Source: Gemmatimonadota bacterium
GTDB lineage: Bacteria; Gemmatimonadota; Gemmatimonadetes; Gemmatimonadales; GWC2-71-9
NCBI GenBank assembly: GCA_039591075.1
Contig: JBDHEI010000004.1
Span: 29,537 to 93,536, forward strand
Length of the DNA stretch: 64,000 nt
Reading direction: 5' to 3'
Program-made: the position numbers and the translations under genes
The notes under the pieces: generated by a model
Seen by the model: only the letters and a program-made list of their open reading frames with translations
The model's database searches: none
Told to the model about the DNA's origin: nothing
In this document: in pieces, positions 8,998-24,608 of the stretch
Position numbering within the stretch: position 1 is the first letter of the stretch
Layout: the number at the start of each line of letters is the position of its first letter

Positions 8998-9011
<14 letters not shown>

Positions 9012-9146
9012 CTCACCAGGCTCGGATATGCGAGCCCGTTCTGCGTCGGCGCCGCGCCGCTTCGGTCCACGGCGCTCGTCTATCGACTCGCGCCTTAGGA
9101 TCAACTCTGCCCGGCGCCTCTCACCAGGCTCGCATGTGCGAGCCCG
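8998..9146 (+). repeat. 41-nt direct repeat pair duplicating the tRNA-Cys 3' end plus a downstream hairpin
   Basis: 8998-9038 reads tctgcccggcgcctctcaccaggctcgGatAtgcgagcccg and 9106-9146 reads tctgcccggcgcctctcaccaggctcgCatGtgcgagcccg, 39/41 identical. The 67-nt filler begins with an acceptor-like ggcgccg at 9049. Confidence 0.85.
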
Positions 9147-9472
9147 GTGCGGGGTGGTACTGGTTCTACAGCTACCGGTACGGACATGGCCTTGGACCCG
9201 CGGCACAGGAATACCTGGGCGACATGGTGGGTCGATTCGGCCGGGAGCGGTTCGAGCGGTTCTGGACATCCGATGCGCCGCTCGAGGAGGCGTTCGAAGA
9301 GGCGATGGGTATGCCGCTCGATCAGTGGACCATGCAATGGGCACGGACCTACATCGGCGTGCCGCGCACCGCAGGGCAACTTCCATGGGGCTCGGCCGTT
9401 CTCTCACTAGTGCTGGCTGCCGCGCTCGTGGGCGGTGCGGGGCTTTACGCCCAGCGGCGGCAGGTTGGTTAG
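9134..9472 (+). pseudogene. Truncated third paralogue of the 5938-7089 gene; C-terminal part only, possibly still expressed as a 112-aa membrane-anchored protein
   Basis: Encodes YLGDMVGRFGRERFERFWTSDAPLEEAFEEAMGMPLDQWTMQWARTY plus a TM helix, collinear with the last ~110 aa of 5938-7089. Nucleotides 9251-9295 match 6868-6912 at 40/45 positions by hand count. The ATG lies inside the second tRNA-end repeat. Confidence 0.55.
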
Positions 9473-9492
9473 GCGGTTAGGCGGTTGGGCGG
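9467..9492 (+). repeat. Tandem octamer array, left arm (GGTTAGGC GGTTAGGC GGTTGGGC GG)
   Basis: Read directly from the sequence. It overlaps the TAG stop of the truncated paralogue. It is the reverse complement of units in the 9575-9630 array. Confidence 0.9.
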
Positions 9493-9565
9493 TAAGTTCC
9501 TCCACAGAGGTCTGAGACGAAGTGGGTCGTCACGACGAAAGAGGACAACCCAACTCCGGGTTCCC

Positions 9566-11113
9566 ATGTCCGATCCAACCGCCCAACCGCCTACCCGCCT
9601 AACCGCTGAACCGCCTAACCGCCTAATCGACGACTGCCTGTCGACGAGGAACGGGCATCTCTTCGTCGAACAGTGCGATACGACGGATCTGGTGAGCCGG
9701 TTCGGTTCGCCGCTGTTCGTGATCTCCGAAGACCAGCTGCGCCGTAACGTGCGCCGGTTTCAGGCCGCGTTTGCGAGCGGGTGGCCCGATGGGCCGGTCA
9801 AGGTGCTGCCGGCCGCCAAGGCCAACTGGATTGCTGCCGTGCAGCACATCCTTGCCAGCGAAGGCTGCGGTTGCGACGTCTACTCGGCCGGTGAGCTCAC
9901 GGTGGCCCTACGGGCCGGCTTCGAACCCCAATACATCTCGGTCAACGGTGTGCCGAAAGACGACGAGCACATCTACCGATGCGTCCAGGAAGGTGTGCGC
10001 ATCACGATCGACAGCGTGGAGGAAGTGGACGCCATCGAGCGCGCGGCGACAGCGCTCGACGGCGTCGCCACGGTGCGGCTGCGGCTCAAACCCGCGCTCG
10101 CCGGGTTCGTGCGACACAGTGAGTTCGTGGCAGAAGGACTCGTCCCCACCGACATTGCCGCCCTCGCCTACAAGGGCGGGCTCGCGTTCGACGACGCAGT
10201 GGCGGTCGGCCGCCGCCTGCTCGCGATGGAGCACGTCGAGCTGGTGGGATTCCACCAGCATCACGGCCGGCACCACCGGTCGCTGCGCTACTGGGAAGAA
10301 CAGATGCGTGCCTTTGCCGCCGAGATCGCACGCGTGTGCGAGGCCCTGGGTGGATACCGTCCCCGCGAGATTGACATCGGCGGCGGGTTCGCGATTCCGC
10401 GGGATCCGTTCAATGCCGTGACTGATTACACCGAGCCACTGCAACTCGCCGTGCTCCACACCCTGTCGAAAGGGCTTTGGGTGTTGGGGCGCCGAGGGCG
10501 GTACGGCGTTCTGCGTCAACTCGTCGATCTGTTCGCGAGCAAGCCGAATGAGACGCCGGCCCCCAGCATCGAGGACTACGCCCGGGTGTGCACCGAAACG
10601 CTGCGGGATTCGCTCCACCGCGTGGGGATCGCCACCGAGGGGCTGCTGCTCGAGCTCGAGCCGGGCCGCTCGATCCACGGTGATGCCGGGATCCACCTGA
10701 CGACGGTGCGGAGCATCAAGCGCATGACCCACCCGATTCGATTCAACCTGGTGGTGGTGGACAGCACCGAGTTCTGGCTCACGGGTGGGCGCTACGAACA
10801 CCACCTGCACGACTATGTGTTCGCCAGCAAGACGGACGCCCCGCTCGAGGGCAAAGCCGACATCATCGGGCGGAGTTGCTTTGGCGATCGCCTGATGCCG
10901 CTGGTCAGGGTCCCCCAGGTTGAGGTAGGCGACCTCCTGGCGCTGCTGGATACGGGGGCCTACCAGGAGGTCTCGACGAGCAACTTCAATGCGCTGCCCC
11001 GGCCAGCCACGGTGCTGGTCACGGGCGATCAGGCGGCGATCGTCCGGCGGGCGGAGACCGAGACCGACGTGCTCCGCCGGGACATCCTTCCGGCACACCT
11101 GGGGAGGGGCTGA
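9566..11113 (+). CDS. PLP-dependent decarboxylase, Orn/DAP/Arg decarboxylase (alanine-racemase fold) family
   Basis: PLP-Lys context LPAAKANW, plus IDIGGGFAIP, LEPGRSIHG and active-site Cys GRSCFGD. The ATG at 9566 is preferred over the TTG at 9485. At 515 aa it is longer than typical LysA. Confidence 0.85.
   Translation: MSDPTAQPPTRLTAEPPNRLIDDCLSTRNGHLFVEQCDTTDLVSRFGSPLFVISEDQLRRNVRRFQAAFASGWPDGPVKVLPAAKANWIAAVQHILASEGCGCDVYSAGELTVALRAGFEPQYISVNGVPKDDEHIYRCVQEGVRITIDSVEEVDAIERAATALDGVATVRLRLKPALAGFVRHSEFVAEGLVPTDIAALAYKGGLAFDDAVAVGRRLLAMEHVELVGFHQHHGRHHRSLRYWEEQMRAFAAEIARVCEALGGYRPREIDIGGGFAIPRDPFNAVTDYTEPLQLAVLHTLSKGLWVLGRRGRYGVLRQLVDLFASKPNETPAPSIEDYARVCTETLRDSLHRVGIATEGLLLELEPGRSIHGDAGIHLTTVRSIKRMTHPIRFNLVVVDSTEFWLTGGRYEHHLHDYVFASKTDAPLEGKADIIGRSCFGDRLMPLVRVPQVEVGDLLALLDTGAYQEVSTSNFNALPRPATVLVTGDQAAIVRRAETETDVLRRDILPAHLGRG
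9575..9630 (+). repeat. Tandem octamer array, right arm (about 7 units of CYAACCGC) inside the 5' coding end of the decarboxylase
   Basis: Reads ccaaccgc ccaaccgc ctacccgc ctaaccgc tgaaccgc ctaaccgc ctaatcga, starting 9 nt after the ATG at 9566. It encodes the 8-aa periodicity PTAQPPTRL/TAEPPNRL. Confidence 0.9.
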
Positions 11114-11138
11114 GCGGAGGAGCGTCTCTCCGCGCCCG

Positions 11139-11167
11139 GCTTCACGCCCGCTTCACACCAGCTTCAT
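11139..11167 (+). promoter_or_regulatory. Three direct repeats GCTTCAC/GCTTCAC/GCTTCAT phased at exactly 11 bp
   Basis: Repeats start at 11139, 11150 and 11161, about 55 bp upstream of the ATG at 11223. The arrangement resembles winged-helix response-regulator sites. Confidence 0.4.
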
Positions 11168-11222
11168 CGCCCGCTGGCGATAGGTGAGTCCTACTCTGCA
11201 AACACCCGTAGAAGGAGACGGC

Positions 11223-11459
11223 ATGGCACTCGTAGTGCGTGAGGAAGTCCGACGGTCCGCGACGGACTGCCGCAAAGAGCTGAGCTGCCTGGCCGGAGAC
11301 GGGACGGACCTGTGCCCGGTGAAAGATTGCGTTGCCGGCACGGTTCACTTCATCGAGTGCCGATCAGAGGGCTATTGCTCGTACAAGCAGGCGTTTGGTG
11401 ACGCCCCTCTCTGTAGCTGTCCGGTTCGCAAAGAGCTGTACCGCGCGTACCGGGTTTGA
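11223..11459 (+). CDS. Small 8-cysteine protein (78 aa), putative metal/Fe-S binding
   Basis: Good SD (gaaggagacggcATG). Cys at positions 16, 22, 31, 36, 46, 52, 64 and 66, with a terminal LCSCPVRKELYRAY motif. The family is not confidently recognised. Confidence 0.6.
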   Translation: MALVVREEVRRSATDCRKELSCLAGDGTDLCPVKDCVAGTVHFIECRSEGYCSYKQAFGDAPLCSCPVRKELYRAYRV

Positions 11460-11624
11460 GAGCCCGACAGGAGCAGGCGCCCATCTGGACTGCAGTAAAC
11501 CGCATAAGTGAGATATCCCGTTCCGAAGGCCGTGGCCTTGGGCGGCAGCGAATGCCTGGGCTCGGTTCCCAATCGGGCCCACTGAGCAGCGAGATGCCGG
11601 ATCGCGGAACGCCCTAGACTCCCG

Positions 11625-11746
11625 CTGACCAACAGGTCAGCTCCATGCGAGGCCTTTGTGGCTGGAATGCCCGGATGTGCTTCGGGTGCCAGCCGCGTTC
11701 GGCGTCGCGAGGGGCTACACAAGCGACGTACTGACCTCAGGGTCAG
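11625..11746. repeat. Two perfect 16-bp palindromes CTGACC-N4-GGTCAG, 106 bp apart
   Basis: ctgaccaacaggtcag at 11625-11640 and ctgacctcagggtcag at 11731-11746. A related CCGACC-N9-GGTCGG lies at 11856-11876. Confidence 0.7.
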
Positions 11747-11894
11747 GTGGCGGTAGCTGCTCCAACCGCGCTGGAAGTGTTGGCTCCACTGACCGGAGCA
11801 CCTACCCTTTGGCCTTTCGTGGCCGTCGCACCGGTCGTTGGCTCCGGGATAGAGCCCGACCGCACCCTCAGGTCGGTCCCCCAGAATCTGGCAG

Positions 11895-11933
11895 TTGACC
11901 AGATCTCTGTAACAAGTATCTTATCACCAAGAT
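11895..11933 (+). promoter_or_regulatory. Putative sigma70-type promoter and operator for the MarR-fusion gene; would give a leaderless or near-leaderless mRNA
   Basis: TTGACC at 11895-11900, a 16-nt spacer, then TATCTT at 11917-11922; the ATG is at 11932. An inverted repeat ATCTT-N6-AAGAT (11918-11933) overlaps the -10 and the start codon. Confidence 0.4.
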
Positions 11934-13965
11934 GAATAGCACTGAGGGGTCTGGCCGTCCTGGACCCACCCCAAGTGCGAACTCGGCCACGGAGTTCTGG
12001 GAGGTTTTGGCCCGGGCCCATGCCCTGGTTGAGGCCCGGGTGGCCGAGCATGCGAGCCGGCATGACCTGACACTTGCTGAGTTCGGTGCGCTCGAGGCGC
12101 TCAGCCGACAGGGCCCGATGTTGCTCGGCGAGCTCCAGCGCCACGTCCTGGTCTCGAGCGGCGGCATGACCTATCTGGTCGATCGGCTCGAGTCGAGGGG
12201 ACTGGTGACTCGGCAGCCGAGTCCCACCGATCGCCGGGCGCGGTTCGCGGTGCTGACCGAAGACGGGCAGCGCCTGATAGACCGGATTGCCCCGGAACAT
12301 GTCCGCGCCGTCGCCGACGCGGTCGGTGGTATGAGCGCCGCAGAGCAACGGCAGGCAAGCACGCTGCTGCGGGCACTGGGTCTGGGCGTGGCAGAACCTG
12401 AGCGAGCCGCCGCCGCTCCAGCCGCGGTACTGCCGGCGGAGCCTGTGGTGTTGACCCGACCGGCACCGGTGGCCGCACGCATCGAGCCCCCGCAACCCGC
12501 TCCACCGGAGGTCGCCCAGCCGGCCCCGGTCGAAGTCCCCCAGGAGCCCGAACCGGAAGAGCCGACCCGACCCGAGCCGGAGGAAGTTGCCGCGGGGGGG
12601 CCGGCACCGGCGTTGGCTCCGGAGGACGTGGAGTGGGTCGAGGCAAGCGAGCCTGTGCCGGACGAGGAGCCAGCGCTCTTGATCGGGCCGGAGACCACCA
12701 TCCTCGTTATCGACGACGACCGCAGCACCCGGAGGGTGGCCAAGTCGGCCCTGGCGGGCCCGGGCCGCGAGATCATTGCCGTCGATTCGGCGGCCGAGGC
12801 GGAGCGGGCGCTGGCGCGACACGACGTGGCGCTGGTCGTTCTGTCACTCGTGCTCCCGGACGCCGACGGCCGAGCTGTATACACCCGGCTCAGCCGCCAG
12901 CGGACCACCGCGGCCATTCCCGTGATCATGGTGGCCTCCAAGGTGGGCGAGCGGGCAAGGGTGGAGTGTCTCGGGCTTGGTGTTGCCGAGTGGTTCGAGA
13001 AACCGATCGACGGCGGGGCGCTGGCACAGGCGGCCGATGCATTGCTCGAAGGCGGCTTGGTCCCGATCGCGTCGTCGGCGGATCCGGTGACCGCGGCCCT
13101 GAATCGCGCCGCGTTCGCCGAAGCGTACGAGCGCGAGGTCACCGCCCGGACGGACGATCCGACACCCACCGCACTCGCACTGCTCGATTTGGACGCCATT
13201 TCCGCGGTGAATCGTGAGCACGGCCGAGACATTGGTGACCGCGTGCTGCGTCAAATACGCGAGCTCCTGTCAGGCGTCCTCCGTGATACTGACGTCGTTG
13301 CCCGCTGGCGTGACGATGAGTTCGTGGTGCTCTTCCCGCAGTCGGATCCGGCGACCGCGACGCGCCTGCTCACCAGGACACAGGCCCTGCTCACCACGTC
13401 GCCGCCTACCGCACCGGACGGGACCGAGATCCCGATCACGTTCTCCGCGGGGATTGCCACGGCCAGCCCGCTTACCTCGATGGAAGAGGCCGTGGCCACC
13501 GCCGATCGCGCGCTGAGCCGGGCCAAGAGTGGAGGGCCGTCCCGCGTCGTGTCCGTCGAAGACGAGTCCACCGAGGCCCCGACCACCGTGCTCGTTGCCG
13601 AAGACGATCGGGTCACGGCGACCCTCGTGCGGCATCGGCTCGAGCGGGCCGGGTTCGAAGTCGTACACTGTGAGTCCGGTACTCTGGCGCTCGAGGCGGC
13701 GGAACAAGTGGCGTTCGGTCTCTGCATTTCGGACATCCGGATGCCCGGACTCGACGGCTTCGAGCTGGTGAAGCGCCTGCGGGCGTTGCCGCAGTACGAG
13801 GCCGTGCCGATCCTGATGCTGACGAGCCTTGGCCGCGAGGAGGACATTGTGCGTGCGTTCAGCCTCGGCGCCAGCGATTACATGACCAAACCGTTTTCGC
13901 CCGTGGAGCTTCTCGCCCGGGTGCAGCGTTTGCTGCGCCGCCGAGTCTCCTCGTCGCCGGCATGA
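11932..13965 (+). CDS. MarR-type wHTH / Pro-Ala linker / pseudo-receiver / degenerate GGDEF (RDDEF, I-site RxxD intact) / canonical receiver fusion protein
   Basis: MarR sequence LTLAEFGALEALSRQGPMLLGELQRHVLVSSGGMTYLVDRLESRGLVTRQPSPTDRRA. REC1 is ILVIDDD...LVVLSLVLPDADG, with Ser at the phospho-Asp position. The GGDEF fold shows LNRAAF, LLDLDAISAVNREHGRDIGD, RDTDVVARWRDDEFVV and ADRALSRAKSGG. REC2 is VLVAEDD...ISDIRMPGLDG...YMTKPF. Confidence 0.85.
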   Translation: MNSTEGSGRPGPTPSANSATEFWEVLARAHALVEARVAEHASRHDLTLAEFGALEALSRQGPMLLGELQRHVLVSSGGMTYLVDRLESRGLVTRQPSPTDRRARFAVLTEDGQRLIDRIAPEHVRAVADAVGGMSAAEQRQASTLLRALGLGVAEPERAAAAPAAVLPAEPVVLTRPAPVAARIEPPQPAPPEVAQPAPVEVPQEPEPEEPTRPEPEEVAAGGPAPALAPEDVEWVEASEPVPDEEPALLIGPETTILVIDDDRSTRRVAKSALAGPGREIIAVDSAAEAERALARHDVALVVLSLVLPDADGRAVYTRLSRQRTTAAIPVIMVASKVGERARVECLGLGVAEWFEKPIDGGALAQAADALLEGGLVPIASSADPVTAALNRAAFAEAYEREVTARTDDPTPTALALLDLDAISAVNREHGRDIGDRVLRQIRELLSGVLRDTDVVARWRDDEFVVLFPQSDPATATRLLTRTQALLTTSPPTAPDGTEIPITFSAGIATASPLTSMEEAVATADRALSRAKSGGPSRVVSVEDESTEAPTTVLVAEDDRVTATLVRHRLERAGFEVVHCESGTLALEAAEQVAFGLCISDIRMPGLDGFELVKRLRALPQYEAVPILMLTSLGREEDIVRAFSLGASDYMTKPFSPVELLARVQRLLRRRVSSSPA

Positions 13966-13981
13966 CCGAGCGCATCTGACC

Positions 13982-15040
13982 ATGCCCCTGAACTTCGGCC
14001 TCGGTGAGCAGCTCCTGCTCTTTCTCGCAATCGGCATCGGGATCCTGATGCTGTTCGCGCTGGGTTTTGCTGGTTCGGTGGTGCTGCTCCGCCTGCACCA
14101 TCAACGTCGCGCCGAAAAGTGGAGCGTGCTGGAAGCCAAGTGGGAAGATGCGATTCTCGAGATGCTGGCCGAGGACCGCGATCCATCGACGGTTCACGCG
14201 CTCGTGGCGGAGGGCGACGAACTGTTCTGCGTGAGCTACATCATGCGCTACGCCAGCAGGCTGTCCGGTCCTGAGCGCGAGCGGCTGCAGGAGCTTGCCC
14301 GGCCGTACCTGCCGCTGGTCGTGCCGCGCGCACAGCATCGGGACGCGCGACGACGGGCACGCGCCGTGCGGACGTTGGGTACGCTGGGGCTTCCCGAATA
14401 TGGCGACATCGTCGCCGCCGCCCTCGGTGATGATTCGCCGTTGGTTTCCATGGTGGCCGCCCGGGCGTTGGCACGGGGTAAGGATCCCGACTACGTCGTA
14501 CCGGTGCTCGACCACCTCGATCGATTCACAGCATGGAGCCCGAACTTCCTGGCATCGATGCTCGCGAGCATTGGCCCCGGCGCGACGCCCGCGCTACGGG
14601 TGGTGTTCGCGGACGCCAAGCGCCCGCCCGAGGTGCGCGCCGTCGCGGCCACGGCCCTCGGTTACCTCAACGATCTCGCTGGTGGTGACATCGCCGTCCA
14701 GGTGCTCGCACTGGCGTCGGACCGTGAGCTGCTGGCAGCGGCGCTGCGCCTGATCGGCAGAGTGGGGCATCGGGACCATCGCTCGGCCGTGCTGCCGTTT
14801 CTCACGGCGTCTGATTTCTACGTGCGGGCCACCGCTGCGAGCGCGCTTGGCGGTGTCGGGGACAAAGAAGACCTCGAGCTTCTCCGGATCGCGTGTGAGG
14901 ACGACTCCCGGTGGGTCGCCATCCACGCTGCGCGCGCCCTGCGTGATGCGGGCGATATCAATTCGTTGCAACAGTTGGCTGCGTCGGGCGGGCCCCGCGC
15001 CACCCTGGCGTTGCAGGTGCTCTCCGAGGTGGGCGGATGA
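13982..15040 (+). CDS. Membrane-anchored HEAT-repeat protein
   Basis: N-terminal TM LLLFLAIGIGILMLFALGFAGSVVLL, followed by repeated HEAT/PBS-lyase-like units (ARAVRTLGTLGLPE, VSMVAARALAR, VRAVAATALGYL, VRATAASALGGVG, WVAIHAARALRDAG). Confidence 0.75.
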   Translation: MPLNFGLGEQLLLFLAIGIGILMLFALGFAGSVVLLRLHHQRRAEKWSVLEAKWEDAILEMLAEDRDPSTVHALVAEGDELFCVSYIMRYASRLSGPERERLQELARPYLPLVVPRAQHRDARRRARAVRTLGTLGLPEYGDIVAAALGDDSPLVSMVAARALARGKDPDYVVPVLDHLDRFTAWSPNFLASMLASIGPGATPALRVVFADAKRPPEVRAVAATALGYLNDLAGGDIAVQVLALASDRELLAAALRLIGRVGHRDHRSAVLPFLTASDFYVRATAASALGGVGDKEDLELLRIACEDDSRWVAIHAARALRDAGDINSLQQLAASGGPRATLALQVLSEVGG

Positions 15041-16542
15041 CGGGGACGGTGGGCGTCGTGCTCGTGCTGCTCGCCGCGTTCAACGGTCTCGTGCTCGTGT
15101 ATTTCGTCGTCCTGAACACGGTGTACCTCCTCACGAGCCTCATCGCGTTCCGGGACATCCGCCGCTACGTCGAGCGTCTCAAATCGCTGGACCTGGGAGA
15201 GTTGCTATCGTCGGAAGGCATTCCGCCGGTCACGATCATCGCGCCGGCATACAACGAGGAACCGACGTGTGTCGAGGCCGCACACTCCTTGCTCAGTCTC
15301 GAATACCAGCGGTTCGAGATCCTGTTCGTCAACGACGGGTCGCGGGACAACACGCTTTCGCGGATGCGGGAGGCGTTCGACCTCGTCCCCGCCGCGCGCC
15401 TGCCGACGGCGGACCTCGCCACCAAGCGGATTCGCAAGGTGTACCAGAGCAAGCGTCATCCCAATCTGTGGGTGATCGACAAGGAGAATGGTGGCAAGGC
15501 GGATGCGCTCAATGCCGGCGTGAACCTGTGTGTCACCCCGCTGTTCTGCGCCGTGGACGCCGACAGTTTGCTGGAACGCGAGGCGCTCACACGGATCGTC
15601 CGGCCGTTCCTGGAGGACCGGCGCACGATTGCCGCGGGTGGGGTGATCCGGATCGTCAACGACTGTACCGTGAGCGAGGGGAGCGTCACCGAAGTGCGAT
15701 TCCCACGGAACTGGTGGGCACGGTTCCAGGTGCTCGAGTATCTGCGCTCGTTCCTCGCCGGACGCATGGGGTGGTCGGTGCTCGATGCCACCCTGATCAT
15801 TTCGGGTGCGTTCGGCGTGTTCCGTCGGGAAACCGTGGTGGCGGCGGGCGGCTATGCGTCGCCCCAGACGTCCGGCGCGACTGTGGGGGAGGACATGGAG
15901 CTCGTGGTTCGGCTCCACCGGTACTGCCGCGAGCACAAGATCCCCTACCGGATCAGTTTTGTTCCGGACCCGGTGGCCTGGACCGAATGTCCGGAGACGC
16001 TTCGCGTGCTGGCGCGACAGCGAGACCGGTGGCAGCGCGGGATGGCCGAGAGCCTGATGCGCCACCGGCGCATGCTGTTCAACCCGCGCTATGGTAGGAT
16101 TGGGTCCCTGGCGTACCCGTACTTCCTGTTTCTGGAAACCCTGGGCCTCCTGGTGGAGATCGTGGGCTACGGCGCCTTTGTGCTGACATTGGCCCTGGGT
16201 CTCGTTTCGTACGTGCACGCCGCCGCGTTTCTGATGGCGGCGTTCGTGTTCGGGATGGTGTTGTCCATTGCGGCGGTCGGGCTCGAGGAGCTGGGCTTCC
16301 GCCGATACCCCCGGGTGTCGGATCTCTTGCGGCTCTTCGTGGTGGCCTCCGTGGAGAATTTCGGGTACCGACAGTTGATTTCCTTGTGGCGGCTGCACGG
16401 GCTGATCTCGGCACTGCGGGGCGTGCAAGGCTGGGGAGAAATGACACGAAAGGGCTTTTCGCCTTCCGGGCCACAGGGACCCGACAGCAGCGCGGCACCG
16501 CTAGACCGTTCACCGTCCACACGGAGGACAGGTGATGGCTGA
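15037..16542 (+). CDS. Processive family-2 glycosyltransferase (PgaC/IcaA/NodC/cellulose-synthase-like polysaccharide synthase)
   Basis: ATGA overlap with the HEAT gene. N-terminal TM, then [53 protein letters not shown] and the Q-x-x-RW motif RQRDRWQRG, followed by C-terminal TM helices. Confidence 0.88.
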
Positions 16543-18463
16543 CCGCCCGGCGCATAGCGCGGAGTGGGGTCTGATCTCCAAGGTGAGTCACGAGATCCGT
16601 ACCCCACTGAACGGACTAGTCGGGCTCGTGGAGCTTCTGCTCGATACCGATCTCTCCGCAGAACAGCAGCGATCCGTCGAGCTCATCCGGGTGTCGGCCG
16701 GCTCATTGCTCACACTGGTCAACGACATCCTGGACTTCACCAAACTCGAACGCGATCGGATCGAGCTGGAGGACGTCGCCTTCGACCTCGGTCAGCTCGT
16801 CGATTCCGCAGTCCAGTTGCTTCGGGTACGGGCATTCGAGCGGGGGATCGCGCTGAGTTACGAGATCGCCCCGGAGGTTCCCCGTGCCGTCCGCGGCGAC
16901 CCCAGCCGACTCCGTCAGATCCTCACCAACCTGATTGGCAACGCCATCAAGTTCACGAGTGAGGGCGGCGTCTTCGTGCTCGCCACGACACAACTCAGCC
17001 GCAGCGCTCGCACGGCGGTCCGCTTCGCGGTGCGTGATACCGGCATCGGTATCCCGCCTGACAAGCTGGAAGCGATCTTCGAGGAGTTCACACAGGCCCA
17101 AGTCAGTGTGTCGCGGAAGTACGGCGGAACGGGCCTCGGGCTCCCGATCGCCCGTAAGTTGGCACAGTTGATGGGCGGGGATCTCAAGGTGACGAGCGAG
17201 GCGGGGAAAGGAAGCGAGTTCGCATTCACGGTCTCGCTGAAGCAAATCGACGAGCGAATGCTGGAGGTGGTGTCGCCGGCCACAGTCCCACTGGACCGAC
17301 TCCGCGTACTCGTGGTGGACGGGAACCCGTCGAGCCGTGAGTTCATTCGGCAGACCCTCGGTGAGGCCGGGGTCACGGTGCGCGTGGCCCCGAGCTTGGA
17401 GGAGGGCTACACGGAACTGCATCGGGCCAGGATCGCCGGTGAGCCCATGCATTTCGCCATTCTCGACGCATGGCTGGACCGACAAGACGGCTTCGAGGTG
17501 ACCCGCCGCATCCGGAATGACCCCGACCTGTCCGAGACCCGCGTCATGATTCTCGCGGCCCGAGGCGAGCGCGGCCATGGTCAGCGTTGTCGGGAGGTGG
17601 GTGCTCAGGCCTACTTCACCAAACCGATATCCGAGAAGGAGCTGTTTGGCGCGATTCGTACGGTGATGGCGGCGAGCCTCGAGGATCTGGTCACGCGCCA
17701 CTCGATTGCCGAGAGCCGACGCCGCTTGCGCGTGCTGGTGGCAGACGACAATGAGGTGAATCGCCAGCTCGCGTCGATCGCCCTGACGAAGCGCGGTCAC
17801 CAGGTGGACCTGGTGGAGCACGGGGGACGGGCCGTCGAGGCGGCTGGGCGGAACCGGTATGACGCGATCCTCATGGATGTCGAGATGCCGGAAGTCGACG
17901 GGATCACCGCCACGGCCCAGCTCCGGAAGATCGAGTCGACGGTCGATACACCGATCATCGCGATGACCGCGCACACCGAGTTCCGCGGGTCCGACGCCTT
18001 TTACGGAAGTGGGTTCACGGCCTTTCTATCCAAGCCGTTTCGGCCCCAGGATCTGGTGCGCGTCGTGGAGGAACTGGGAACGGAGCGAGAGGCGGTGACG
18101 ACGGCATCGGCAGACCAGACCGCACCCGTCGAGCTACACGAGTTCCGACGGGTGATGCGCGAGGCTGGCATCGAGGACACGGCCGACAGCATCCTCGGTG
18201 TGTTCCTCGCCGATGCACCGGGACGGATGCGCGAGCTCGAAGAGGCCGTCGGGACCGGAAATGCGGTGGCGATCCGGGCGGCGGCGCACGCTTATCGATC
18301 GGCGGCCGCGACGGTGCGAGCCGAGAGCCTTGCCGCGTTATTGAGTCACGTGGAATCGGCTGCGACGACCGCGAACCTGGATCACGTGAACGAGGTGCTG
18401 CCCCAGTTGCGCGGGGAGCACGAGGCGGTGATCGCCTACCTCCGGGACGTGGATACCCGGTAA
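16532..18463 (+). CDS. Hybrid histidine kinase without a sensor domain (HisKA-HATPase-REC-REC-HPt)
   Basis: The ATG overlaps the GT2 3' end by 11 nt. The H-box [10 protein letters not shown] lies only ~20 aa from the start. Also GNAIKFT, DTGIGI and YGGTGLGL; REC Asp contexts FAILDAW and [13 protein letters not shown]; HPt [13 protein letters not shown]. Confidence 0.9.
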
Positions 18464-18494
18464 CGTCCCATCACGGGTCGTGCGAGAACCGCGG

Positions 18495-19145
18495 TCACGC
18501 CGCCGGCGTCATCCGTTCTAGGAGCGCGCGCGTCGCCTTGATCTCATCACGGTTGACGGTGTGGGCCATACCGGGATAGATCCGCACGTCGACGGTTCCG
18601 CCGAGCGCCTGGAGAGTGGATGCGCTTTCCGTGACCCGCTCGACCGGAATGTGCGGGTCCACGACGCTGCAGCCGAGCAAGACCGGCGTGTCGGCCAGGG
18701 ACCCCGCGTACAAGCGTGGCGTGCCCGGTGGACCGATGAGACCACCGCTCAGTCCCACCACCGCGCCGTATCGCCGCGCGTTGCGCGCCGCGAACTCCAG
18801 CACGAGACGCGCGCCCTGTGAGAAACCGAGGAGCACCACGCCTTCAGCCGAGATGCCGGATCGATCCACGCGATCGAGCATCGCGCCCACGGTGCCAAGG
18901 GCGAACGACAGATCGGGCTCGTTGTCGTCGAAGGGCGCCAGAAAACTGAACGGGTACCAGGAACCGCGTGGCGCCTGGGGCGCGAGAAACGCGATGCCGG
19001 GAACCGCGATGTCCCGGGCCAGGTGCAACATGTCGGCGGCCGAACCGCCCCGGCCATGCGCAAGGATCACCGTCGCACCGGCCGCGTCCAGGGGCGTGCC
19101 GAACACGCCAACGTGAACCTGACCGAGGCCTGCCGGGTCACGCAC
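18495..19145 (-). CDS. Alpha/beta hydrolase (phospholipase/carboxylesterase, dienelactone-hydrolase-like)
   Basis: Nucleophile elbow LLGFSQGA, plus ILAHGRGGSA and a C-terminal GMAHTV His motif. 216 aa. Confidence 0.8.
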   Translation of the reverse strand: MRDPAGLGQVHVGVFGTPLDAAGATVILAHGRGGSAADMLHLARDIAVPGIAFLAPQAPRGSWYPFSFLAPFDDNEPDLSFALGTVGAMLDRVDRSGISAEGVVLLGFSQGARLVLEFAARNARRYGAVVGLSGGLIGPPGTPRLYAGSLADTPVLLGCSVVDPHIPVERVTESASTLQALGGTVDVRIYPGMAHTVNRDEIKATRALLERMTPAA

Positions 19146-19196
19146 GTACCTTCCTCCTCCGCGAGCATGCTGCTTGGGGTCGCTGCAGCACGCGAG

Positions 19197-20786
19197 CTAG
19201 AAGGCCCAGCTACCGGACACCGTGACGGCCACGTAGCGGTAGCCGGCTCCGCCGGTGGAAAAGCTCTGGAGGCCCGCGTTGGAGTAGAGTGCGGAGATGC
19301 CGACCTGCCGGCCGGGGGAGAGGTCGTACGCGGTCTGTAGTGACAGCCGGATCGTGGCGTGTGGATCCCACGTCGATGTGATCTGCTCGAGCCCCGGTGC
19401 CGCTTCCCCCGTGACGTGCCATGGTCCGCGCAGCGGCCGCCAGCGGGCGATCGCCTCGGCATGCAGGTACGAGTTGGGATCGAAGTACCCATCCTGGAGA
19501 TTCTTTTCAAAACCAAAGGCGCGGACCCGCGCCGCCGCGATCCAGGAAGGTGTAAGACGACGAGTGCCGGCGACGTAGCCCGCGAGTCTCCTGTTGGCCT
19601 CGCTGCCTCGGAAGTCCGCGTACGAGAACCCGCCCTCCAACTGCCACAGACGCCAGGGTTCCGCGCGTAAGCTCGCGGCGCCTTGGGTGTACGTCACTCC
19701 ACTGTCGATCATGAGCGCCGTGGCGTCGAACGCCGAGTGGCTGAACGTGAGGGAGCCGCCAATCGGGTTTCGCGCAGGGCTCGCGATGCTTGCGTGCACC
19801 GCCGGTTCGGTCACCGCGGCCGCGCCGTTCGATCCGGAAGCACCGACGCCGAGCCCGACGGTCCAGCCAGGCTCGGCGAGATACCGCCCCGTCGCCACGA
19901 GCCCCCACGCCTGGCGGTCCACGGTGGGCTCGTTCCAGGCCGCGTGCCGGTAGTAGCTGTCGAACCCCATCTGGAATCGTGGCACGACGGGATACGTGCC
20001 GCGGAGGACGACGGTCGCGATGCGTTGTTCGTCTGAGTCGGCCTCGTAGGTGAACGCCGGGCGAACCCAGGGTCCGATCGCCGCGGCGATCGAGCGACGC
20101 TCCTCGCCGTAGTCGCGCGTCCCGCGTCTGTCGGGCGGAATGCGCTGCAAGGTCTCGAGCGCCGCGGCGGGTCGCCCCTGCCAGCGAAGCGTTTGCGACA
20201 GCCCGATGAGGGTGGTGGGATCCCCCTCAGCCATGGCATCCACCGCGCGCCATCGTTCCTCGGCCCCGAGGAGATCACCCTGCCAGGCGGTGATGCGGGC
20301 TATTCCCTGGAGAGCCTCGATGTCGGCGGCGTTGGAGGCGATGAGGTCCGCGTAGATGGCGCGGGCCGAATCGAGATCGTCGAGCCACGCCGTCGTCTGC
20401 GCGAGCCCGAGCCGCACCGAGCGGTTGCCCGGCGACCGACGCAGCATCGCCTCGTAGGAGGCCACGGACTCACGGAGCCGTCCTGCCCAGGCCAGGACCC
20501 TGGCGCGGTCGATCTGGGCTTCGATGTGTTGCGGGTTGAGCGCAAGGATGCGGTCGAACAGGGCCAGGCTCGCGGCGTAGTCACCGTCCCACGCTACCAT
20601 CAGCGCCATCCGATGGAGCGCCAGCGCGTCGGTGGAATCGGTGGCGAGCCGTTCGGCGTAGAGTTGCCGAGCCGTATCGATGTCGCCGCTGGTCCAGGCC
20701 ACGTCGGCGGGGTGCTGCGCCCACCCGGTGGTCGTGACCGAGGCAAGCAGGATTGCAGCCAAGGACGCGAGCCGGAGCAGTCTCAT
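19197..20786 (-). CDS. TPR-repeat plus C-terminal beta-barrel outer-membrane protein (PgaA/BcsC/PelB-like export porin)
   Basis: The ATG at 20786 overlaps the upstream stop (ATGA). Signal MRLLRLASLAAILLASVTTTGWAQ. About 270 aa of TPR with a recurring AW.G motif, then alternating beta-strand sequence ending YVAVTVSGSWAF (terminal Phe). Confidence 0.75.
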   Translation of the reverse strand: MRLLRLASLAAILLASVTTTGWAQHPADVAWTSGDIDTARQLYAERLATDSTDALALHRMALMVAWDGDYAASLALFDRILALNPQHIEAQIDRARVLAWAGRLRESVASYEAMLRRSPGNRSVRLGLAQTTAWLDDLDSARAIYADLIASNAADIEALQGIARITAWQGDLLGAEERWRAVDAMAEGDPTTLIGLSQTLRWQGRPAAALETLQRIPPDRRGTRDYGEERRSIAAAIGPWVRPAFTYEADSDEQRIATVVLRGTYPVVPRFQMGFDSYYRHAAWNEPTVDRQAWGLVATGRYLAEPGWTVGLGVGASGSNGAAAVTEPAVHASIASPARNPIGGSLTFSHSAFDATALMIDSGVTYTQGAASLRAEPWRLWQLEGGFSYADFRGSEANRRLAGYVAGTRRLTPSWIAAARVRAFGFEKNLQDGYFDPNSYLHAEAIARWRPLRGPWHVTGEAAPGLEQITSTWDPHATIRLSLQTAYDLSPGRQVGISALYSNAGLQSFSTGGAGYRYVAVTVSGSWAF

Positions 20787-23362
20787 CGTCCCGCCACGCG
20801 CTCGTCGAGTCGGGAGAACACTCGCTGCATCGCATCGAACACGGGCCGGCGTCGCGCCCGCCAGCGCGGCTCGTCCCACGGCTCCCAGCGGAACTGGGCA
20901 ACCGGTGCGCGGCCGACGGGCCACTGCTGCCACGACCCGTCGGCGAAGCGGGCGGCGGCGACCATCCCGATCGACTCTATCTGTCGCGGGACGAACCCGT
21001 CGGCCGTGTCCGCAGTGCTCGAGAGCACCTGCAAGCTGCTTGGATCGACGACGTTGATGAGTGTCCATGGAATCCGGATCTCCATGATCCCCGATGCGGA
21101 ATCTACCTCCCAGAAGCCGTCAGGCGCCGCCCCGGCCGGCAAGACACTCCGGTCGTAGCCCACGGCGGCGTATTCGGTCCGGTCGCGAGCGAACCGACGC
21201 CGGTTGATGATGACCCGCAGCGAATCGTACCGCGTGTCGTCACGGCGCTTGGTCCGGAGCGGCAGGTTGTAGTGCTGCAGGTACGGCCCGACGAACATTC
21301 CCGGCGGCGGGCTCGTGACCGGCGGCACGGTCACCGGCTCCTTGAGCACCGGTACCCGCTCGATCTGGAACGGGTTGGCGTTGGGGTCGGCGAGCACCCG
21401 TACCTCGTTCGGCGTCGCCACGATGGCGAACTCCACACCGATGGGCAAGCGTACGTCGGCCTTTCCGGGCCAACGAGTGGTTCCGGCCTTGCGGTCGACG
21501 ACATCCAGTCCCACGAGGAGCGTGTCCGGCAGCCCGCGCCCGCCCGGATCGAAGCAAAGGTGGAGATACGTCTCGTCGGCGAGGGCGCGAAGCGCCTCCC
21601 CGTACAGGCCCGGCACAGTCTGCCACCGGGGGAGTCGGTCGGCGAGCGTCGATCCATCCAGGCGCGGCACGGGCTCGATGGCGATCACGCCGTACTGCTG
21701 CTCCGCGTTCAGGCGGCTCAGCCAGAAGCGGGCGCGGTCGCGCGGCAACTCGAGATCGATCACCACCCAGTTCTTCTTGAACCACTCGTCGATCCACGCG
21801 AAGAGCATACCACCAGCCATACCCACCTCGTGGATCAGAGCGGTTGACTCCGCGTCGATCCGCGCCTTCTCGGCCTCGGTATGGCCGCCGTGGTGCCAAC
21901 CGGTGTCGGAGAGGTGGGCCAAGCCCAAGCTCGCAGGGACGCCGTACTCGGCGATCACGACCGGCATGTCCCGGTGGTGCTGCTTCAGTCGTCTGAGGTA
22001 CCGGGCGTATCCGCCGCCCACCACGATGAAGTCGGGGTAGTAGGGATAGGCGTGATAGGACGCGAACACGCCGGCGCGGAACGCCTCGGTCGCCCGCATG
22101 AGGTTCGGGTCGATGGCGACGAGGTCATTGTCGTACTCCTGAGGTACGTACGTGGTGTCCCCGCCAAGCGATTTGCGAATCGCGAGCTCTTCGGCGACGG
22201 TGGTCTCGGTTGGGTGGGTCAACGGGTCGAGTGTGGGCCAGCTCGTGTAGGCCACCGGTCGCTGGTGCCGGTACGTCTCGCTCTCGTAAGCAATGATCCG
22301 CTCGGAGATCTGCGTGAGCCACACGTCCATGGCCGTCCCGCCCTCGATCGCGAGGTACGCGCCGTGCCACGAGGAGCGGTTCGGATGGTTGAGATTGAAG
22401 GTGTCGACCGCGAACGGCTCCCACTCCCGGCCTAGGATGTAGGCCAGTGTCCATCGGGATACGTCGGCGGTATAGAATCCAGACGTGTGTCCGGGTCGGG
22501 GAGCGATGTCCGCACGGCCATGGATCAGATCCACAACGTACTGCATCTCGTCCGAGAACTGCTCGTTCCAGGCCGGGTCGTCAAAATCGTGATCCGGGGG
22601 TAACTCCGCCCACACGCCGTGCACCAACCACAGTGGTCGGTCGGTATGCGTCCGGTTGTGCTCCGCGAGCGCCTCATAGAAGTGCGGTGGGTGAATCGTA
22701 TAGACCCGAATCGTGTTGGCTCCCATCTCGGCGATCTCGGCGATCCAGCCCGCGTAGGTCAGCGAATCCGGAAACTGGCTCGGGAATCGGCCCGGCAGCG
22801 CGGCGCCAAGGTTCACGCCCTTGATGTAGAACGGTCGCCATCGGCCGCGGGCGGCCACCTCAAACCTGTCCCCGCAAGTCCGTGACGCCAGCACGAGGGT
22901 GTTGGGTACCTCGAGCGGGGCCCGGACGGGTGGTGTGCCCAGTCGATCGAGTTGCTCGCGCGCTTCGGCGTGATCGGGTGCGAGGGCGAGCACCTGGGTG
23001 AAGAGCCGGCGGGCCTCCCGCCCGTTTCCTCTCCGGGAGGCGACCAGCCCGATCCCTTGGAGCGCGTCTACGGTCTGTGGCGCGTGTTGCAGCGCGCGTT
23101 CGAACTGCCGGCGGGCCTCGACGAGCCGATTCCCTCGCAGATACCCGTATCCGGCACCGACGGTAGCACCGAGGTGCGCGGGGCAGCGCCGTAAAGCCTC
23201 TTCGAAGACTTCCGTGGCGTCGTCAATACGGTCGTTACGGTACAGCTTCCAGCCACGCGCGACCCTGGTGTCCGCTGCCAGCGGACAGGGTGTGTCGTCC
23301 TGAGAGGAGCAGGCAGCGGCAACGAGGAACACGGCGAAGGCCGTGGAGCGTAGGGCATTCAT
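20783..23362 (-). CDS. Lipoprotein with N-terminal TPR domain and a large TIM-barrel glycoside-hydrolase-like domain
   Basis: Signal/lipobox MNALRSTAFAVFLVAAACSS; an alternative ATG lies at 23380. TPR block in residues ~30-190. GH-A-clan-like strands FYIKGVNLG, GANTIRVYTIHPP, WLVHGVW, VVIAEYGVPAS and FAWIDEWFKKNW. The GH family is not assigned. Confidence 0.7.
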   Translation of the reverse strand: MNALRSTAFAVFLVAAACSSQDDTPCPLAADTRVARGWKLYRNDRIDDATEVFEEALRRCPAHLGATVGAGYGYLRGNRLVEARRQFERALQHAPQTVDALQGIGLVASRRGNGREARRLFTQVLALAPDHAEAREQLDRLGTPPVRAPLEVPNTLVLASRTCGDRFEVAARGRWRPFYIKGVNLGAALPGRFPSQFPDSLTYAGWIAEIAEMGANTIRVYTIHPPHFYEALAEHNRTHTDRPLWLVHGVWAELPPDHDFDDPAWNEQFSDEMQYVVDLIHGRADIAPRPGHTSGFYTADVSRWTLAYILGREWEPFAVDTFNLNHPNRSSWHGAYLAIEGGTAMDVWLTQISERIIAYESETYRHQRPVAYTSWPTLDPLTHPTETTVAEELAIRKSLGGDTTYVPQEYDNDLVAIDPNLMRATEAFRAGVFASYHAYPYYPDFIVVGGGYARYLRRLKQHHRDMPVVIAEYGVPASLGLAHLSDTGWHHGGHTEAEKARIDAESTALIHEVGMAGGMLFAWIDEWFKKNWVVIDLELPRDRARFWLSRLNAEQQYGVIAIEPVPRLDGSTLADRLPRWQTVPGLYGEALRALADETYLHLCFDPGGRGLPDTLLVGLDVVDRKAGTTRWPGKADVRLPIGVEFAIVATPNEVRVLADPNANPFQIERVPVLKEPVTVPPVTSPPPGMFVGPYLQHYNLPLRTKRRDDTRYDSLRVIINRRRFARDRTEYAAVGYDRSVLPAGAAPDGFWEVDSASGIMEIRIPWTLINVVDPSSLQVLSSTADTADGFVPRQIESIGMVAAARFADGSWQQWPVGRAPVAQFRWEPWDEPRWRARRRPVFDAMQRVFSRLDERVAGR

Positions 23363-23504
23363 CGGGAAGTGCCGAAGCATAGACGTGGGTCCGGTGCTGG
23401 GCAATCACCGGCTTGCCCTCCGCCGAGTCTGGCCGTTAGCGTATGGGTTGACGGACGACGCGAGCGCTTGCGCCGCCGCCTTCCCCCCGAGCGCGGAGCA
23501 CTTG

Positions 23505-24608
23505 GTGAATGAACTATCTATCGCCACGCAGCGGATTCGTCGCGGTATCGCGGATTCGCGGAGGTGCATCCGGACACTTGCCGTGGCACTCCTCGTTCCG
23601 GGAGTGGCCATGTGTCAGAGTTCGAGCATGACCGACCGTGGCCTGACCGCAGTCGACGGCGTTCTGGTGGGTCACGTGACCCTGACCGAGCGCCCCACGG
23701 GTTGTACGGTCGTCCTGCTTCCACCGGGCACCGTGGGAGGAGTGGATGTCCGGGGCGGTGCGCCCGGGACGCGCGAGACCGATCTCCTCGATCCGGTCAA
23801 TACCGTCGATGTGGTCCACGCGGTCGTCCTTTCGGGTGGGAGCGCCTTCGGACTCGACGCCGCCTCGGGTGTGGTCCGGTATCTGGAGGAGCAGGGCATA
23901 GGATTCGAGACAGCGGTTGCGCGTGTGCCCATTGTGGTCCAAGCCATCCTCTACGACCTGGCCGTGGGCGACGATCCCGCGGTGCGTCCGGATGCCGAGT
24001 GCGGATACCGTGGGGCGAGTGCGGCAACCGGCGCACCAGTCGGTGAGGGGAGCGTGGGCGCTGGAGCCGGAGCGACCGTCGGTAAGATCCGGGGCCTCGG
24101 CCGCGCTATGCGAGGTGGAGTCGGTTCGGCGTCCGTCACGCTTTCCAACGGACTCACGGTGAGTGCGATCGTCGCGGTCAACGCGCTGGGTGACGTGATC
24201 GACCCAGCTACCGGTCGCGTCGTGGCGGGGGTGCGGGCCGAAAATGGATCGACGCTTGCCGACGCCCGGCGCCTGCTGCGTGAGACTGGCCAGGCACTGC
24301 CGGGGCCGGGCCAGAATACGACCATTGGTGTCGTGGCGACCAACGCGCGACTCACCAAGGCCCAAGCGACCAAGGTGGCGCAGATGGCGCACGACGGCAT
24401 CGCGCGAACGATCTATCCGGCACACACCCCGTGGGACGGCGACGCCATCTTCGGTCTCGCCACCGGCAGCTTGGGCGGCGAGGCGGACGTTGCGACGATC
24501 GGGACGCTGGCCGCCGACGTCGTGGCGGAGGCGATCCTGCGCGCCGTTCGGGCCGCCGACGGCCTACCCGGGATTCCGGCCGTTTCCGACCTGCGCGGAG
24601 GCCGATGA
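23505..24608 (+). CDS. Peptidase family S58 (DmpA/BapA-like aminopeptidase, P1 family)
   Basis: Motifs GLTAVDGVLVGHVTL, TGCTVVL, VDVRGGAPGTRETDLL and VVLSGGSAFGLDAASGV. The start is uncertain: a GTG at 23505 gives a signal-like N-terminus, and ATGs at 23610 and 23628 are also possible. Confidence 0.8.
   Translation: MNELSIATQRIRRGIADSRRCIRTLAVALLVPGVAMCQSSSMTDRGLTAVDGVLVGHVTLTERPTGCTVVLLPPGTVGGVDVRGGAPGTRETDLLDPVNTVDVVHAVVLSGGSAFGLDAASGVVRYLEEQGIGFETAVARVPIVVQAILYDLAVGDDPAVRPDAECGYRGASAATGAPVGEGSVGAGAGATVGKIRGLGRAMRGGVGSASVTLSNGLTVSAIVAVNALGDVIDPATGRVVAGVRAENGSTLADARRLLRETGQALPGPGQNTTIGVVATNARLTKAQATKVAQMAHDGIARTIYPAHTPWDGDAIFGLATGSLGGEADVATIGTLAADVVAEAILRAVRAADGLPGIPAVSDLRGGR

Follow-up and report, generated by a model that had tools for sequence, protein, structure and literature searches.

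A conserved sensor-less hybrid histidine kinase in a putative receiver–HEAT–glycosyltransferase cluster of Gemmatimonadota

The window analysed here is a 64,000-nt stretch of high-GC DNA from a Gemmatimonadota genome (contig JBDHEI010000004.1, positions 29,537 to 93,536), and our subject is the last gene of an operon on its forward strand. The operon encodes a response regulator of 677 aa with the domain order MarR–pseudo-receiver–degenerate GGDEF–receiver (11932–13965), a HEAT-repeat protein of 352 aa (13982–15040), a membrane family 2 glycosyltransferase (GT2) of 501 aa (15037–16542) and a hybrid histidine kinase of 642 aa (16535–18463), the last delimited from the list of open reading frames (ORFs), Pfam and orthologues. 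As judged from sequence comparisons, the kinase is a soluble cytoplasmic enzyme whose lack of a sensor is a conserved state, which derives from PAS-bearing kinases and which is always encoded inside a cluster of receiver (REC), HEAT, GT2 and tetratricopeptide-repeat (TPR) genes. Exactly the same protein is found on a 185-kb JGI Gemmatimonadota metagenome contig (L001; related loci are cited below by such numbers).

Pfam models place HisKA at residues 13–72 of the kinase (E = 6e-18), HATPase_c at 121–236 (E = 2e-29), two Response_reg domains thereafter and Hpt at 553–633 (E = 7e-8), giving the order HisKA–HATPase–REC1–REC2–HPt of a HisKA-type (class I) hybrid histidine kinase with HPt. An N-terminal sensory or membrane input is usual in that family, although it does not strictly define it. 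The Pfam and transmembrane (TM) check of the 642 residues returned no PAS, GAF, HAMP or TM segment, and nothing N-terminal of HisKA. In the AlphaFold model (50 sequences, pLDDT 80), the helices of the dimerization and histidine phosphotransfer (DHp) domain span residues 6–36 and 42–73; only five residues stand ahead of the first helix, and the signalling-helix extension is missing too. An earlier note on this DNA, made from its letters, had described a kinase without TM, PAS, GAF or HAMP input, and both Pfam and the model bear this out; the lack is a conserved state and does not stem from a miscalled start.

The catalytic and relay residues (H19, the ATP boxes, D448 and H585) are all intact and conserved. 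Relatives were taken from a search of 5.8 billion proteins, and the clade comparisons set 23 sensor-less proteins against 99 PAS-bearing relatives. The DHp hairpin of the predicted four-helix bundle (aa 6–73; 16550–16753; Pfam and AlphaFold) carries the phospho-accepting His19 (codon 16589–16591), which is kept in 20 of 20 full-length orthologues. The catalytic ATP-binding (CA) domain (aa 81–237; 16775–17245; Pfam HATPase_c) has intact N, G1, F and G2 boxes, and N132, N136, D168, G170, G172, F182 and the motif GGTGLGL are invariant among the same 20 orthologues. REC1 (aa 255–380; 17297–17674) is degenerate, with Gly263 at the second acidic position and Ala341 at the T/S position; Asp311 and Lys363 are kept. 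The linker between the receivers (17675–17725) bears the conserved motif LVTRHSIxExRRRLR, in which T387, R388, H389, E393 and R395 are invariant or nearly so among orthologues; it occupies the position of the DDR tether of the kinase ShkA, with another sequence. REC2 (aa 398–515; 17726–18079) is a canonical receiver, whose D404/D405, acceptor D448 (codon 17876–17878), T478 and K500 are conserved in 23/23 sensor-less proteins, and His585 (codon 18287–18289) of the HPt domain (aa 534–641; 18134–18457; Pfam Hpt) is invariant in the same 23. The invariance of H19, the ATP boxes, the REC2 residues and H585 therefore indicates that the His–Asp–His relay is under selection.

The 5′ end of the gene required some care. 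The ORF runs from 16532 to 18463, with GTG at 16532 as its first codon and ATG at 16535; the junction with the GT2 gene (16524–16542) comprises a Shine–Dalgarno sequence GGAGGA (16524–16529), the two candidate starts and the GT2 stop TGA (16540–16542). Counted from ATG 16535 the overlap is 8 nt (ATGGCTGA), and from GTG 16532 it is 11 nt. Orthologue N-termini read M-A/P/T-D, and the kinases of L085 and L087 share an identical ATGNCTGA overlap with GT2 (that of L086 is ATGA). On both counts, ATG 16535 is likely to be the true start. The earlier note was thus right to place the kinase start inside the end of the GT2 gene; its ATG at 16532 and its 11-nt overlap have to be corrected to ATG 16535 and 8 nt. 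It had also reported that a stop shuts the frame just upstream, leaving no sensor-bearing in-frame start, and on checking we found this stop, an in-frame TAG at 16502–16504, 30 nt before the start. A hidden sensor or upstream start can be ruled out, as the TAG closes the frame, the GT2 gene fills that DNA and the orthologues are equally short at their N-termini. An idea suggested by L002–L004, that coupling to GT2 is peculiar to the window, was dropped because L085–L087 show the same 8-nt or 4-nt overlap; start/stop overlap with GT2 occurs in four of the five clusters in which the kinase follows GT2.

Where did a kinase of this kind come from? The search yielded a distinct set of proteins of 644–652 aa with 50–56% identity to the kinase and the same architecture, comprising at least 20 independent metagenomic orthologues, the named sources of which are Gemmatimonadota. 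They outrank several thousand PAS-bearing relatives (approximately 47% identity), and all sensor-less proteins have 16–25 residues N-terminal of the H-box. When kinase cores were compared by neighbour joining, all 23 sensor-less proteins fell into a single clade, recovered in 100 of 100 bootstrap replicates and lying within the PAS kinases. Its sister group includes, in 81 of 100 bootstrap replicates, L006HK, a PAS-PAS-HisKA-HATPase-REC-REC-HPt kinase of 1134 aa encoded directly 3′ of GT2 in a related metagenome-assembled genome (MAG), that is, in the slot of the window kinase. L006HK is also the nearest PAS-bearing relative by distance (0.77, versus 0.95 to the kinase at 38484–41264).

The latter, a second kinase on the forward strand of the window (926 aa; PAS-PAS-HisKA-HATPase-REC-REC-HPt by Pfam and BLASTP), had been proposed to be the paralogue from which the sensor-less kinase differs by the removal of its inputs. 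A pairwise BLASTP alignment showed 46% identity over 630 aa (query 16–637, subject 288–916), with identical runs that include a 21-residue stretch and YGGTGLGL, and so agrees with the collinearity that had been noticed. The derivation does not hold, in that the kinase is not a recent truncated copy: the clade is old and monophyletic, and L006HK is nearer. Because the monophyletic clade is nested in PAS kinases and its sister L006HK occupies the same slot, the loss of the sensors took place once, in a kinase already resident in this cluster, and the kinase at 38484–41264 is a cousin and not a parent. Two short matches, P0086 and P0082, were considered as further sensor-less kinases and rejected, as both proved to be PAS kinases whose calls are truncated on short contigs, at a distance of 0.01–0.08 from full-length ones.

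Two sets of changes accompany the new clade. First, the sensor-less and the PAS clade have fixed different residues at nine DHp positions, among them the specificity-type positions 27, 28, 31, 35, 47, 51, 57 and 61. Second, REC1 has changed. The receiver quintet of REC1 is complete in 99/99 PAS relatives versus 11/23 sensor-less proteins (incomplete in 12/23), and the acceptor aspartate is present in all 23. The losses are DG plus A in the window, K→M, Q or T in the MarR-following subclade, K→R in two proteins and DD→SE in one; they differ from one another and are evidently independent. REC1 is the least conserved domain within the sensor-less clade, and between the two window paralogues it is 35% identical, compared with 43–55% for the other domains. 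A tryptophan two residues past the REC1 acceptor is nearly fixed in the sensor-less clade, where the PAS relatives have glutamine. The loss of the sensor was thus accompanied by relaxed phospho-chemistry in REC1, which argues against phosphorylation of REC1 as the replacement input. Two readings suit such relaxation: REC1 may be decaying, leaving a default-on kinase, or it may be turning into a pseudo-receiver. The sites of clade-specific shift were also considered as markers of a new binding surface on REC1; only 3 of 35 fall in REC1, most lying in DHp, CA and HPt, and they give no positive support for a new ligand site.

We compared nine informative genomic contexts of sensor-less kinases: window/L001, L002/L005, L003, L004, L085, L086, L087, L088 and L090. 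All nine encode a HEAT-repeat protein, a GT2 and one or more TPR proteins; both TPR proteins (approximately 860 and 530 aa) are present in 8/9, L090 having only one, of 532 aa. A receiver–GGDEF–receiver protein occurs in eight contexts, with an N-terminal MarR domain in four of those; in L088 it is replaced by a single-domain receiver and a stand-alone MarR protein. The kinase is the terminal gene in all nine. It follows GT2 in five (the window, L085 and L087 with an 8-nt overlap, L086 with 4 nt, and L002/L005 with a 140-nt gap) and a MarR-containing gene in the other four (L003, L004, L088 and L090, with a 4-nt overlap in L004 and L090). Its start overlaps the preceding stop in six of the nine contexts. 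Tight coupling to the preceding gene is therefore the rule, and this neighbour is not always the synthase.

The TPR genes of the window lie on the reverse strand, convergent to the operon, at 19197–20786 (approximately 530 aa; also in L002–L005 and L085–L090) and 20783–23404 (approximately 865 aa; also in L002–L005 and L085–L088, not in L090), adjoining a Peptidase_S58 gene at 23343–24608 (+). In L086, L087 and L088, the order is Peptidase_S58 on the reverse strand, followed by TPR, TPR, regulator, HEAT, GT2 and kinase on one strand. The window layout is explained by an inversion of the regulator–HEAT–GT2–kinase block relative to the Peptidase_S58–TPR–TPR block.

Some clusters are larger than that of the window. 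In L005 (1102–13514) and L085 (1–10950), two GT2 paralogues, 44% identical, flank the TPR pair, with one sensor-less kinase at the end. The second GT2 (GT2b) follows a HEAT-repeat gene, and a full second triad of receiver, HEAT and GT2b was read only in L088 and L090; the window has the ‘a’ copy only. Directly 3′ of the sensor-less kinase, L002 (10226–13680) and likewise L005 encode a CHASE8-HAMP hybrid kinase without HPt and a REC-HD-GYP phosphodiesterase, which are possible extra inputs using the HPt of the sensor-less kinase. In addition, a gene set resembling type II secretion systems (T2SS) or type IV pili adjoins the cluster in L003 (11052–17860), L088 (12135–19947), L089 (6385–11093) and L090 (11534–16517). 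Its genes include those for PilN, T2SSM, a secretin, T2SSF and a T2SSE ATPase that bears an MshEN domain; L003, L088 and L089 contain the gene for this ATPase, and the L090 contig stops before it.

The GT2 protein (15037–16542) has the DAD and QRDRW motifs of a processive membrane synthase of the PgaC, NodC and chitin synthase kind. It scores 126.9 bits against the PgaC_IcaA model TIGR03937, below the cut-off of 422.3; the GT2 fold is present. The HEAT-repeat protein begins with an N-terminal TM helix, and its gene runs 4 nt into that of GT2. We detected 165 relatives of it, all metagenomic, and none with a functional name beyond HEAT repeat protein or hypothetical protein.

When GTDB genomes, one for each species, were scanned with the GT2 alignment, more than 578 relatives were obtained. 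We analysed the best 80 loci, and the following counts rest on the 69 with enough flanking sequence. A HEAT gene stands directly upstream of GT2 and co-directional with it in 56 of the 69, and in 51 of these 56 the ORF preceding HEAT ends in a receiver domain, with an N-terminal part that varies (REC-GGDEF, HPt-REC, HPt-REC-REC, a helix-turn-helix domain, or none). The same arrangement, a REC-terminated protein, HEAT and GT2, adjacent and co-directional, is present at 11932–16542 in the window. Among loci L005–L084, it is found in Gemmatimonadota, Neomarinimicrobiota, Rhodothermales, Sericytochromatia, Acidimicrobiia and some Proteobacteria. This REC–HEAT–GT2 triad is a grouping that we propose here and not a described family; searches of the literature on HEAT, GT2 and receiver clusters and on Gemmatimonadota exopolysaccharide yielded no description of it, and one preprint that we consulted does not mention such a cluster (10.1101/2025.09.12.675316). 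We infer that the HEAT-adjacent receiver acts as the regulatory subunit of the HEAT–GT2 synthase and that a multi-step relay ends on it. In L044 and L057, an HPt domain is fused to this receiver, which supports the relay reading.

In the regulator of the window, Pfam analysis and motif inspection delimit the MarR domain (12061–12288), Ser305 at the acceptor position of the first receiver (12844–12846), an RxxD motif (13282–13293), RDDEF in place of the cyclase motif (13309–13323) and the acceptor Asp601 of the second receiver, REC2 (13732–13734). The cyclase motif reads REDEF in L003, RDDEF in L002/L005 and RGHEF in L004, and the position of Ser305 holds G or A in orthologues. The RxxD motif, RDTD, has canonical I-site spacing; it is absent in L002/L005. 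A Neomarinimicrobiota protein at the position of the regulator has GGEEF and an intact first receiver, and because these counterparts keep both features the degeneration is specific to the lineage. The earlier label of a MarR–GGDEF fusion thus needs qualifying, since with RDDEF the protein is not a canonical diguanylate cyclase. An active cyclase supplying the synthase with local cyclic di-GMP (c-di-GMP) was rejected for this lineage on the same motif and on the lack of an acceptor aspartate in the first receiver. Retention of the RxxD motif alongside a degenerate active site is the hallmark of GGDEF domains that act as c-di-GMP receptors, and the regulator looks like such a receptor or a plain response regulator, and not like a cyclase.

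Because the first receiver has serine in place of the acceptor aspartate, only REC2, through D601, is predicted to accept phosphate. The regulator REC2 is 57% identical to the HEAT-adjacent receiver of an Acidimicrobiia MAG and 51% to that of a gammaproteobacterial MAG, versus 28–30% to every other receiver of the window. The proposal that REC2 of the regulator is the phosphate target of the kinase is thus upheld as the most plausible one, with D601 as sole acceptor and REC2 in a conserved HEAT-adjacent group. The MarR part is less constant. L001 matches the window at 99.76% identity but lacks 34 nt of the Pro/Ala-rich linker (approximately 12400–12500 in the window; approximately 5960 in L001), a deletion that shifts the frame and parts MarR from REC-GGDEF-REC; JGI calls a 450-aa protein and an opposite-strand gene there. 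This deletion, together with the stand-alone MarR gene directly before the kinase in L088, indicates either that the fused or separate state of MarR is unstable or that the linker is error-prone in assembly.

Other genes and features of the window are as follows. An alpha/beta-hydrolase gene (Abhydrolase_2/DLH, 216 aa; 18495–19145, −) lies between the kinase and the TPR genes and is absent in the other clusters examined; its product could be a polymer-modifying esterase or unrelated. Ahead of the operon stand a 78-aa Cys-rich ORF (11224–11459, +) and approximately 470 nt of non-coding DNA (11460–11931). A promoter-like element, TTGACC-16-TATCTT, ends 10 nt before ATG 11932, which suggests that the operon transcript is nearly leaderless. 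Rfam models for riboswitches and other known RNAs gave no match at E values up to 0.1 in window 9000–24000. Farther upstream are a Ser/Thr protein kinase gene (7094–8827, −; 577 aa) and a gene for a pyridoxal-phosphate enzyme resembling ornithine, arginine and diaminopimelate decarboxylases (9485–11113, +), which are not conserved beside the cluster in other genomes. A signalling region of the window contains a multi-PAS HisKA_3 kinase (42596–46543; 1315 aa), a CheY-like receiver (47345–47740) and a five-PAS hybrid kinase without HPt (47767–51306; 1179 aa). The CheY-like protein is more likely to be the partner of the kinase at 47767–51306, which it adjoins, than a target of the sensor-less kinase.

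What might a kinase without a sensor do in such a cluster? We consider that it probably serves as a dedicated phosphorelay donor that gates the HEAT–GT2 synthase of a Gemmatimonadota exopolysaccharide cluster. Phosphate would pass from H19 to D448, then to H585 and finally to D601 in the C-terminal receiver of the regulator. Once phosphorylated, this receiver would gate the HEAT–GT2 synthase by protein contact, and it may also alter DNA binding by the MarR domain. In the absence of a sensor, the most likely controls on kinase output are its expression level and intramolecular regulation, which we regard as about equally likely. In the first mode, control would lie in the amount of kinase made, from a gene that is the last of its operon and usually start/stop-coupled to the preceding one. 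In the second, REC2 and the pseudo-receiver REC1 would hold the kinase off, in the manner of ShkA, until released. We think that the ligand, on the evidence of the aligned residues, would not be c-di-GMP bound as it is in ShkA.

Several points weigh against this proposal. The links from HPt to D601 and from REC2 of the regulator to the HEAT protein rest on gene neighbourhood and residue logic. With the REC1 acceptor aspartate in 23/23 proteins and the full quintet in 11/23, part of the family may still phosphorylate REC1, and the low conservation of this domain fits simple decay as well as it fits a new binding role. Since the ligand contacts of ShkA and its DDR motif are not conserved in the kinase, the ShkA analogy is architectural only. 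Moreover, if expression level alone controlled the kinase, a fully conserved relay of four steps would seem elaborate, and the regulator could also be fed by other kinases of the genome, among which are many PAS hybrids.

The most specific alternative takes ShkA literally. This kinase of Caulobacter crescentus has no input domain; REC2 and the DDR linker, seated on the pseudo-receiver REC1, keep it off, and c-di-GMP frees it by competing for the REC1 site of the DDR linker (PMC6969517, PMC7010744). By the same scheme, c-di-GMP on the alpha4-beta5-alpha5 face of REC1 would displace the REC1–REC2 linker of the window kinase, free REC2 and turn the kinase on. The domain order and the lack of an input are shared, and ShkA (6QRJ) is both the best full-length match of solved structure (chain residues 7–474, E = 1e-60, 31% identity) and the top Foldseek match (E = 1e-28). 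REC1 of the window kinase is degenerate (DG...A), two of the six c-di-GMP contacts are kept (R324 as R346, Y338 as Y360), and the RxxD I-site of the regulator hints that c-di-GMP matters in the cluster. However, the other four contacts differ (I340→T, R344→S, S347→E, Q351→A), the two kept ones are generic, being also found in 98 to 99 of the 99 PAS relatives, and DDR is replaced by TRHS; furthermore, the local GGDEF domain is catalytically degenerate, so that the cluster has no cyclase of its own. A strict c-di-GMP site of the ShkA type was therefore rejected on its residues, and we regard this alternative as unlikely. The window kinase shares the architecture of ShkA and possibly its autoinhibition logic, but its residues at the c-di-GMP site and in the linker do not place it with ShkA. 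The earlier suggestion of control by the kinase’s own receivers accordingly stays plausible, with ShkA as a solved precedent, without the ShkA c-di-GMP site and DDR tether.

The kinase might instead be a relay hub, collecting signals from sensor-bearing kinases either through DHp heterodimers, in the style of RetS and GacS, or through phosphate passed onto its REC2 and HPt by hybrid kinases that lack an HPt. Such hybrids exist in the window (e.g., 47767–51306), one with CHASE8-HAMP lies directly 3′ of the kinase in L002/L005, and the kinase cores of RetS and GacS are among the best structural matches. Nevertheless, the nine clade-specific DHp positions argue for insulation from the PAS paralogues, the invariant ATP boxes mean that the kinase’s own activity is under selection, and the decaying receiver chemistry shows that REC1 is not a conserved phospho-input. 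We find this alternative improbable.

We give little credence to the model of the earlier note, in which direct contact with GT2 or HEAT switches the kinase and the gene overlap ensures co-assembly. In the window and in L085, L086 and L087, the kinase gene does begin inside the end of the GT2 gene, and the kinase always co-occurs with HEAT and GT2. In L003, L004, L088 and L090, however, it follows the MarR gene, with two or three genes between it and GT2, and in L002/L005 a gap of 140 nt separates it from GT2; an overlap yields stoichiometric expression and does not show contact, and with five residues before its DHp helix the kinase has no evident docking module. It is very unlikely that the kinase is a phosphatase or phosphate sink that keeps the regulator receiver dephosphorylated while another kinase acts as donor: its H-box keeps the E/T phosphatase motif (HEIRT), and paired receivers within a single protein can serve as sinks, but the ATP-binding motifs are invariant across the clade and no other kinase is conserved in the cluster in the contexts read. 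Finally, the comparisons refute an artefact, either a 5′-truncated pseudogene or a miscalled start of a PAS kinase: such truncated calls do occur, as in P0086 and P0082, but here a stop lies 30 nt upstream, the preceding DNA belongs to the GT2 gene, and 23 proteins from independent samples share the N-terminus, form one clade and strongly conserve the relay residues.

A broader speculation can be offered, which we hold only tentatively and consider doubtful as a whole. The REC–HEAT–GT2 triad might represent a widespread, undescribed class of synthase-dependent exopolysaccharide machine that is gated directly by phosphorylation of its own dedicated receiver, via a membrane HEAT adaptor, and not by c-di-GMP; in one Gemmatimonadota lineage, its kinase would have shed its PAS sensors, REC1 becoming a pseudo-receiver that offers some ligand or partner a cryptic input. 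Were it true that the receiver gates the synthase via HEAT, the system would be a phosphorylation-controlled counterpart of the c-di-GMP-controlled synthases of cellulose, poly-N-acetylglucosamine (PNAG), alginate and Nfr, in abundant and barely cultured bacteria of soil and sea. Sensor-less cytosolic hybrid kinases are common, and ShkA is the main case that we found with a structurally worked-out input mechanism. The present clade offers a natural before-and-after series, with REC1 perfect in 99/99 PAS relatives and its catalytic residues repeatedly lost in 12/23 sensor-less proteins, which makes the question of what replaces a sensor directly testable with few proteins.

How does this system compare with known ones? 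Like the PgaCD, IcaAD, BcsA and NfrB systems, the present one has a processive GT2 in the membrane, marked by D, DxD and QxxRW motifs, and TPR proteins alongside; unlike them, the cluster has no PilZ, MshEN or PgaD partner, and has a TM-anchored HEAT protein and an adjacent receiver instead. For a receiver that controls polysaccharide synthesis post-translationally, and not via transcription, a precedent is EpsW–EpsZ of Myxococcus xanthus, in which a polysaccharide enzyme is reported to be activated through direct contact with a response regulator of a single domain, although the pathway there is of the Wzx/Wzy type, the target is a phosphoglycosyl transferase and no HEAT protein is described (PMC12802240). 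The regulator shares a receiver and a GGDEF domain with PleD, PopA, PelD and PssE-type degenerate GGDEF proteins, PleD being its best NCBIfam family match; it differs from them in the order MarR–REC–GGDEF–REC and in a first receiver without acceptor aspartate, and its role as a c-di-GMP receptor is putative.

The core of the kinase is that of BarA/GacS, TorS and ArcB (HisKA–HATPase–REC–HPt), with the His–Asp–His relay in one polypeptide. These are its best NCBIfam matches (BarA E = 9e-120), at 401, 382 and 322 bits, respectively, against equivalog cut-offs of 890, 676 and 838, and thus fall far below. They have TM, HAMP or PAS inputs and one annotated receiver, whereas the window kinase has none of these inputs and two receivers. 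The likeness to CikA is one of concept only, a degenerate receiver inside a kinase serving as a regulatory or input module. In Synechococcus, the pseudo-receiver of CikA inhibits autophosphorylation and binds quinone and KaiB (PMC12632262); CikA differs, however, in its GAF domain and in the C-terminal position of its pseudo-receiver. ShkA is closer, being cytosolic, free of an N-terminal input and alike end to end over DHp–CA–REC1–REC2, with a canonical terminal receiver and a central one that departs from canonical chemistry, as it does in the window kinase and about half of its family. It differs in its DDR tether motif, where TRHS within the conserved LVTRHS stands in the window kinase, in its separate HPt protein, ShpA, which is here a fused domain, in that about half of the sensor-less family keeps DD and K in REC1, and in its output, a cell-cycle transcription factor, where the window kinase is tied to a polysaccharide cluster. 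The kinase is thus a sensor-less hybrid of the ShkA-like kind that carries its HPt domain in the same chain, and the REC–HEAT–GT2 system that surrounds it is the more novel object.

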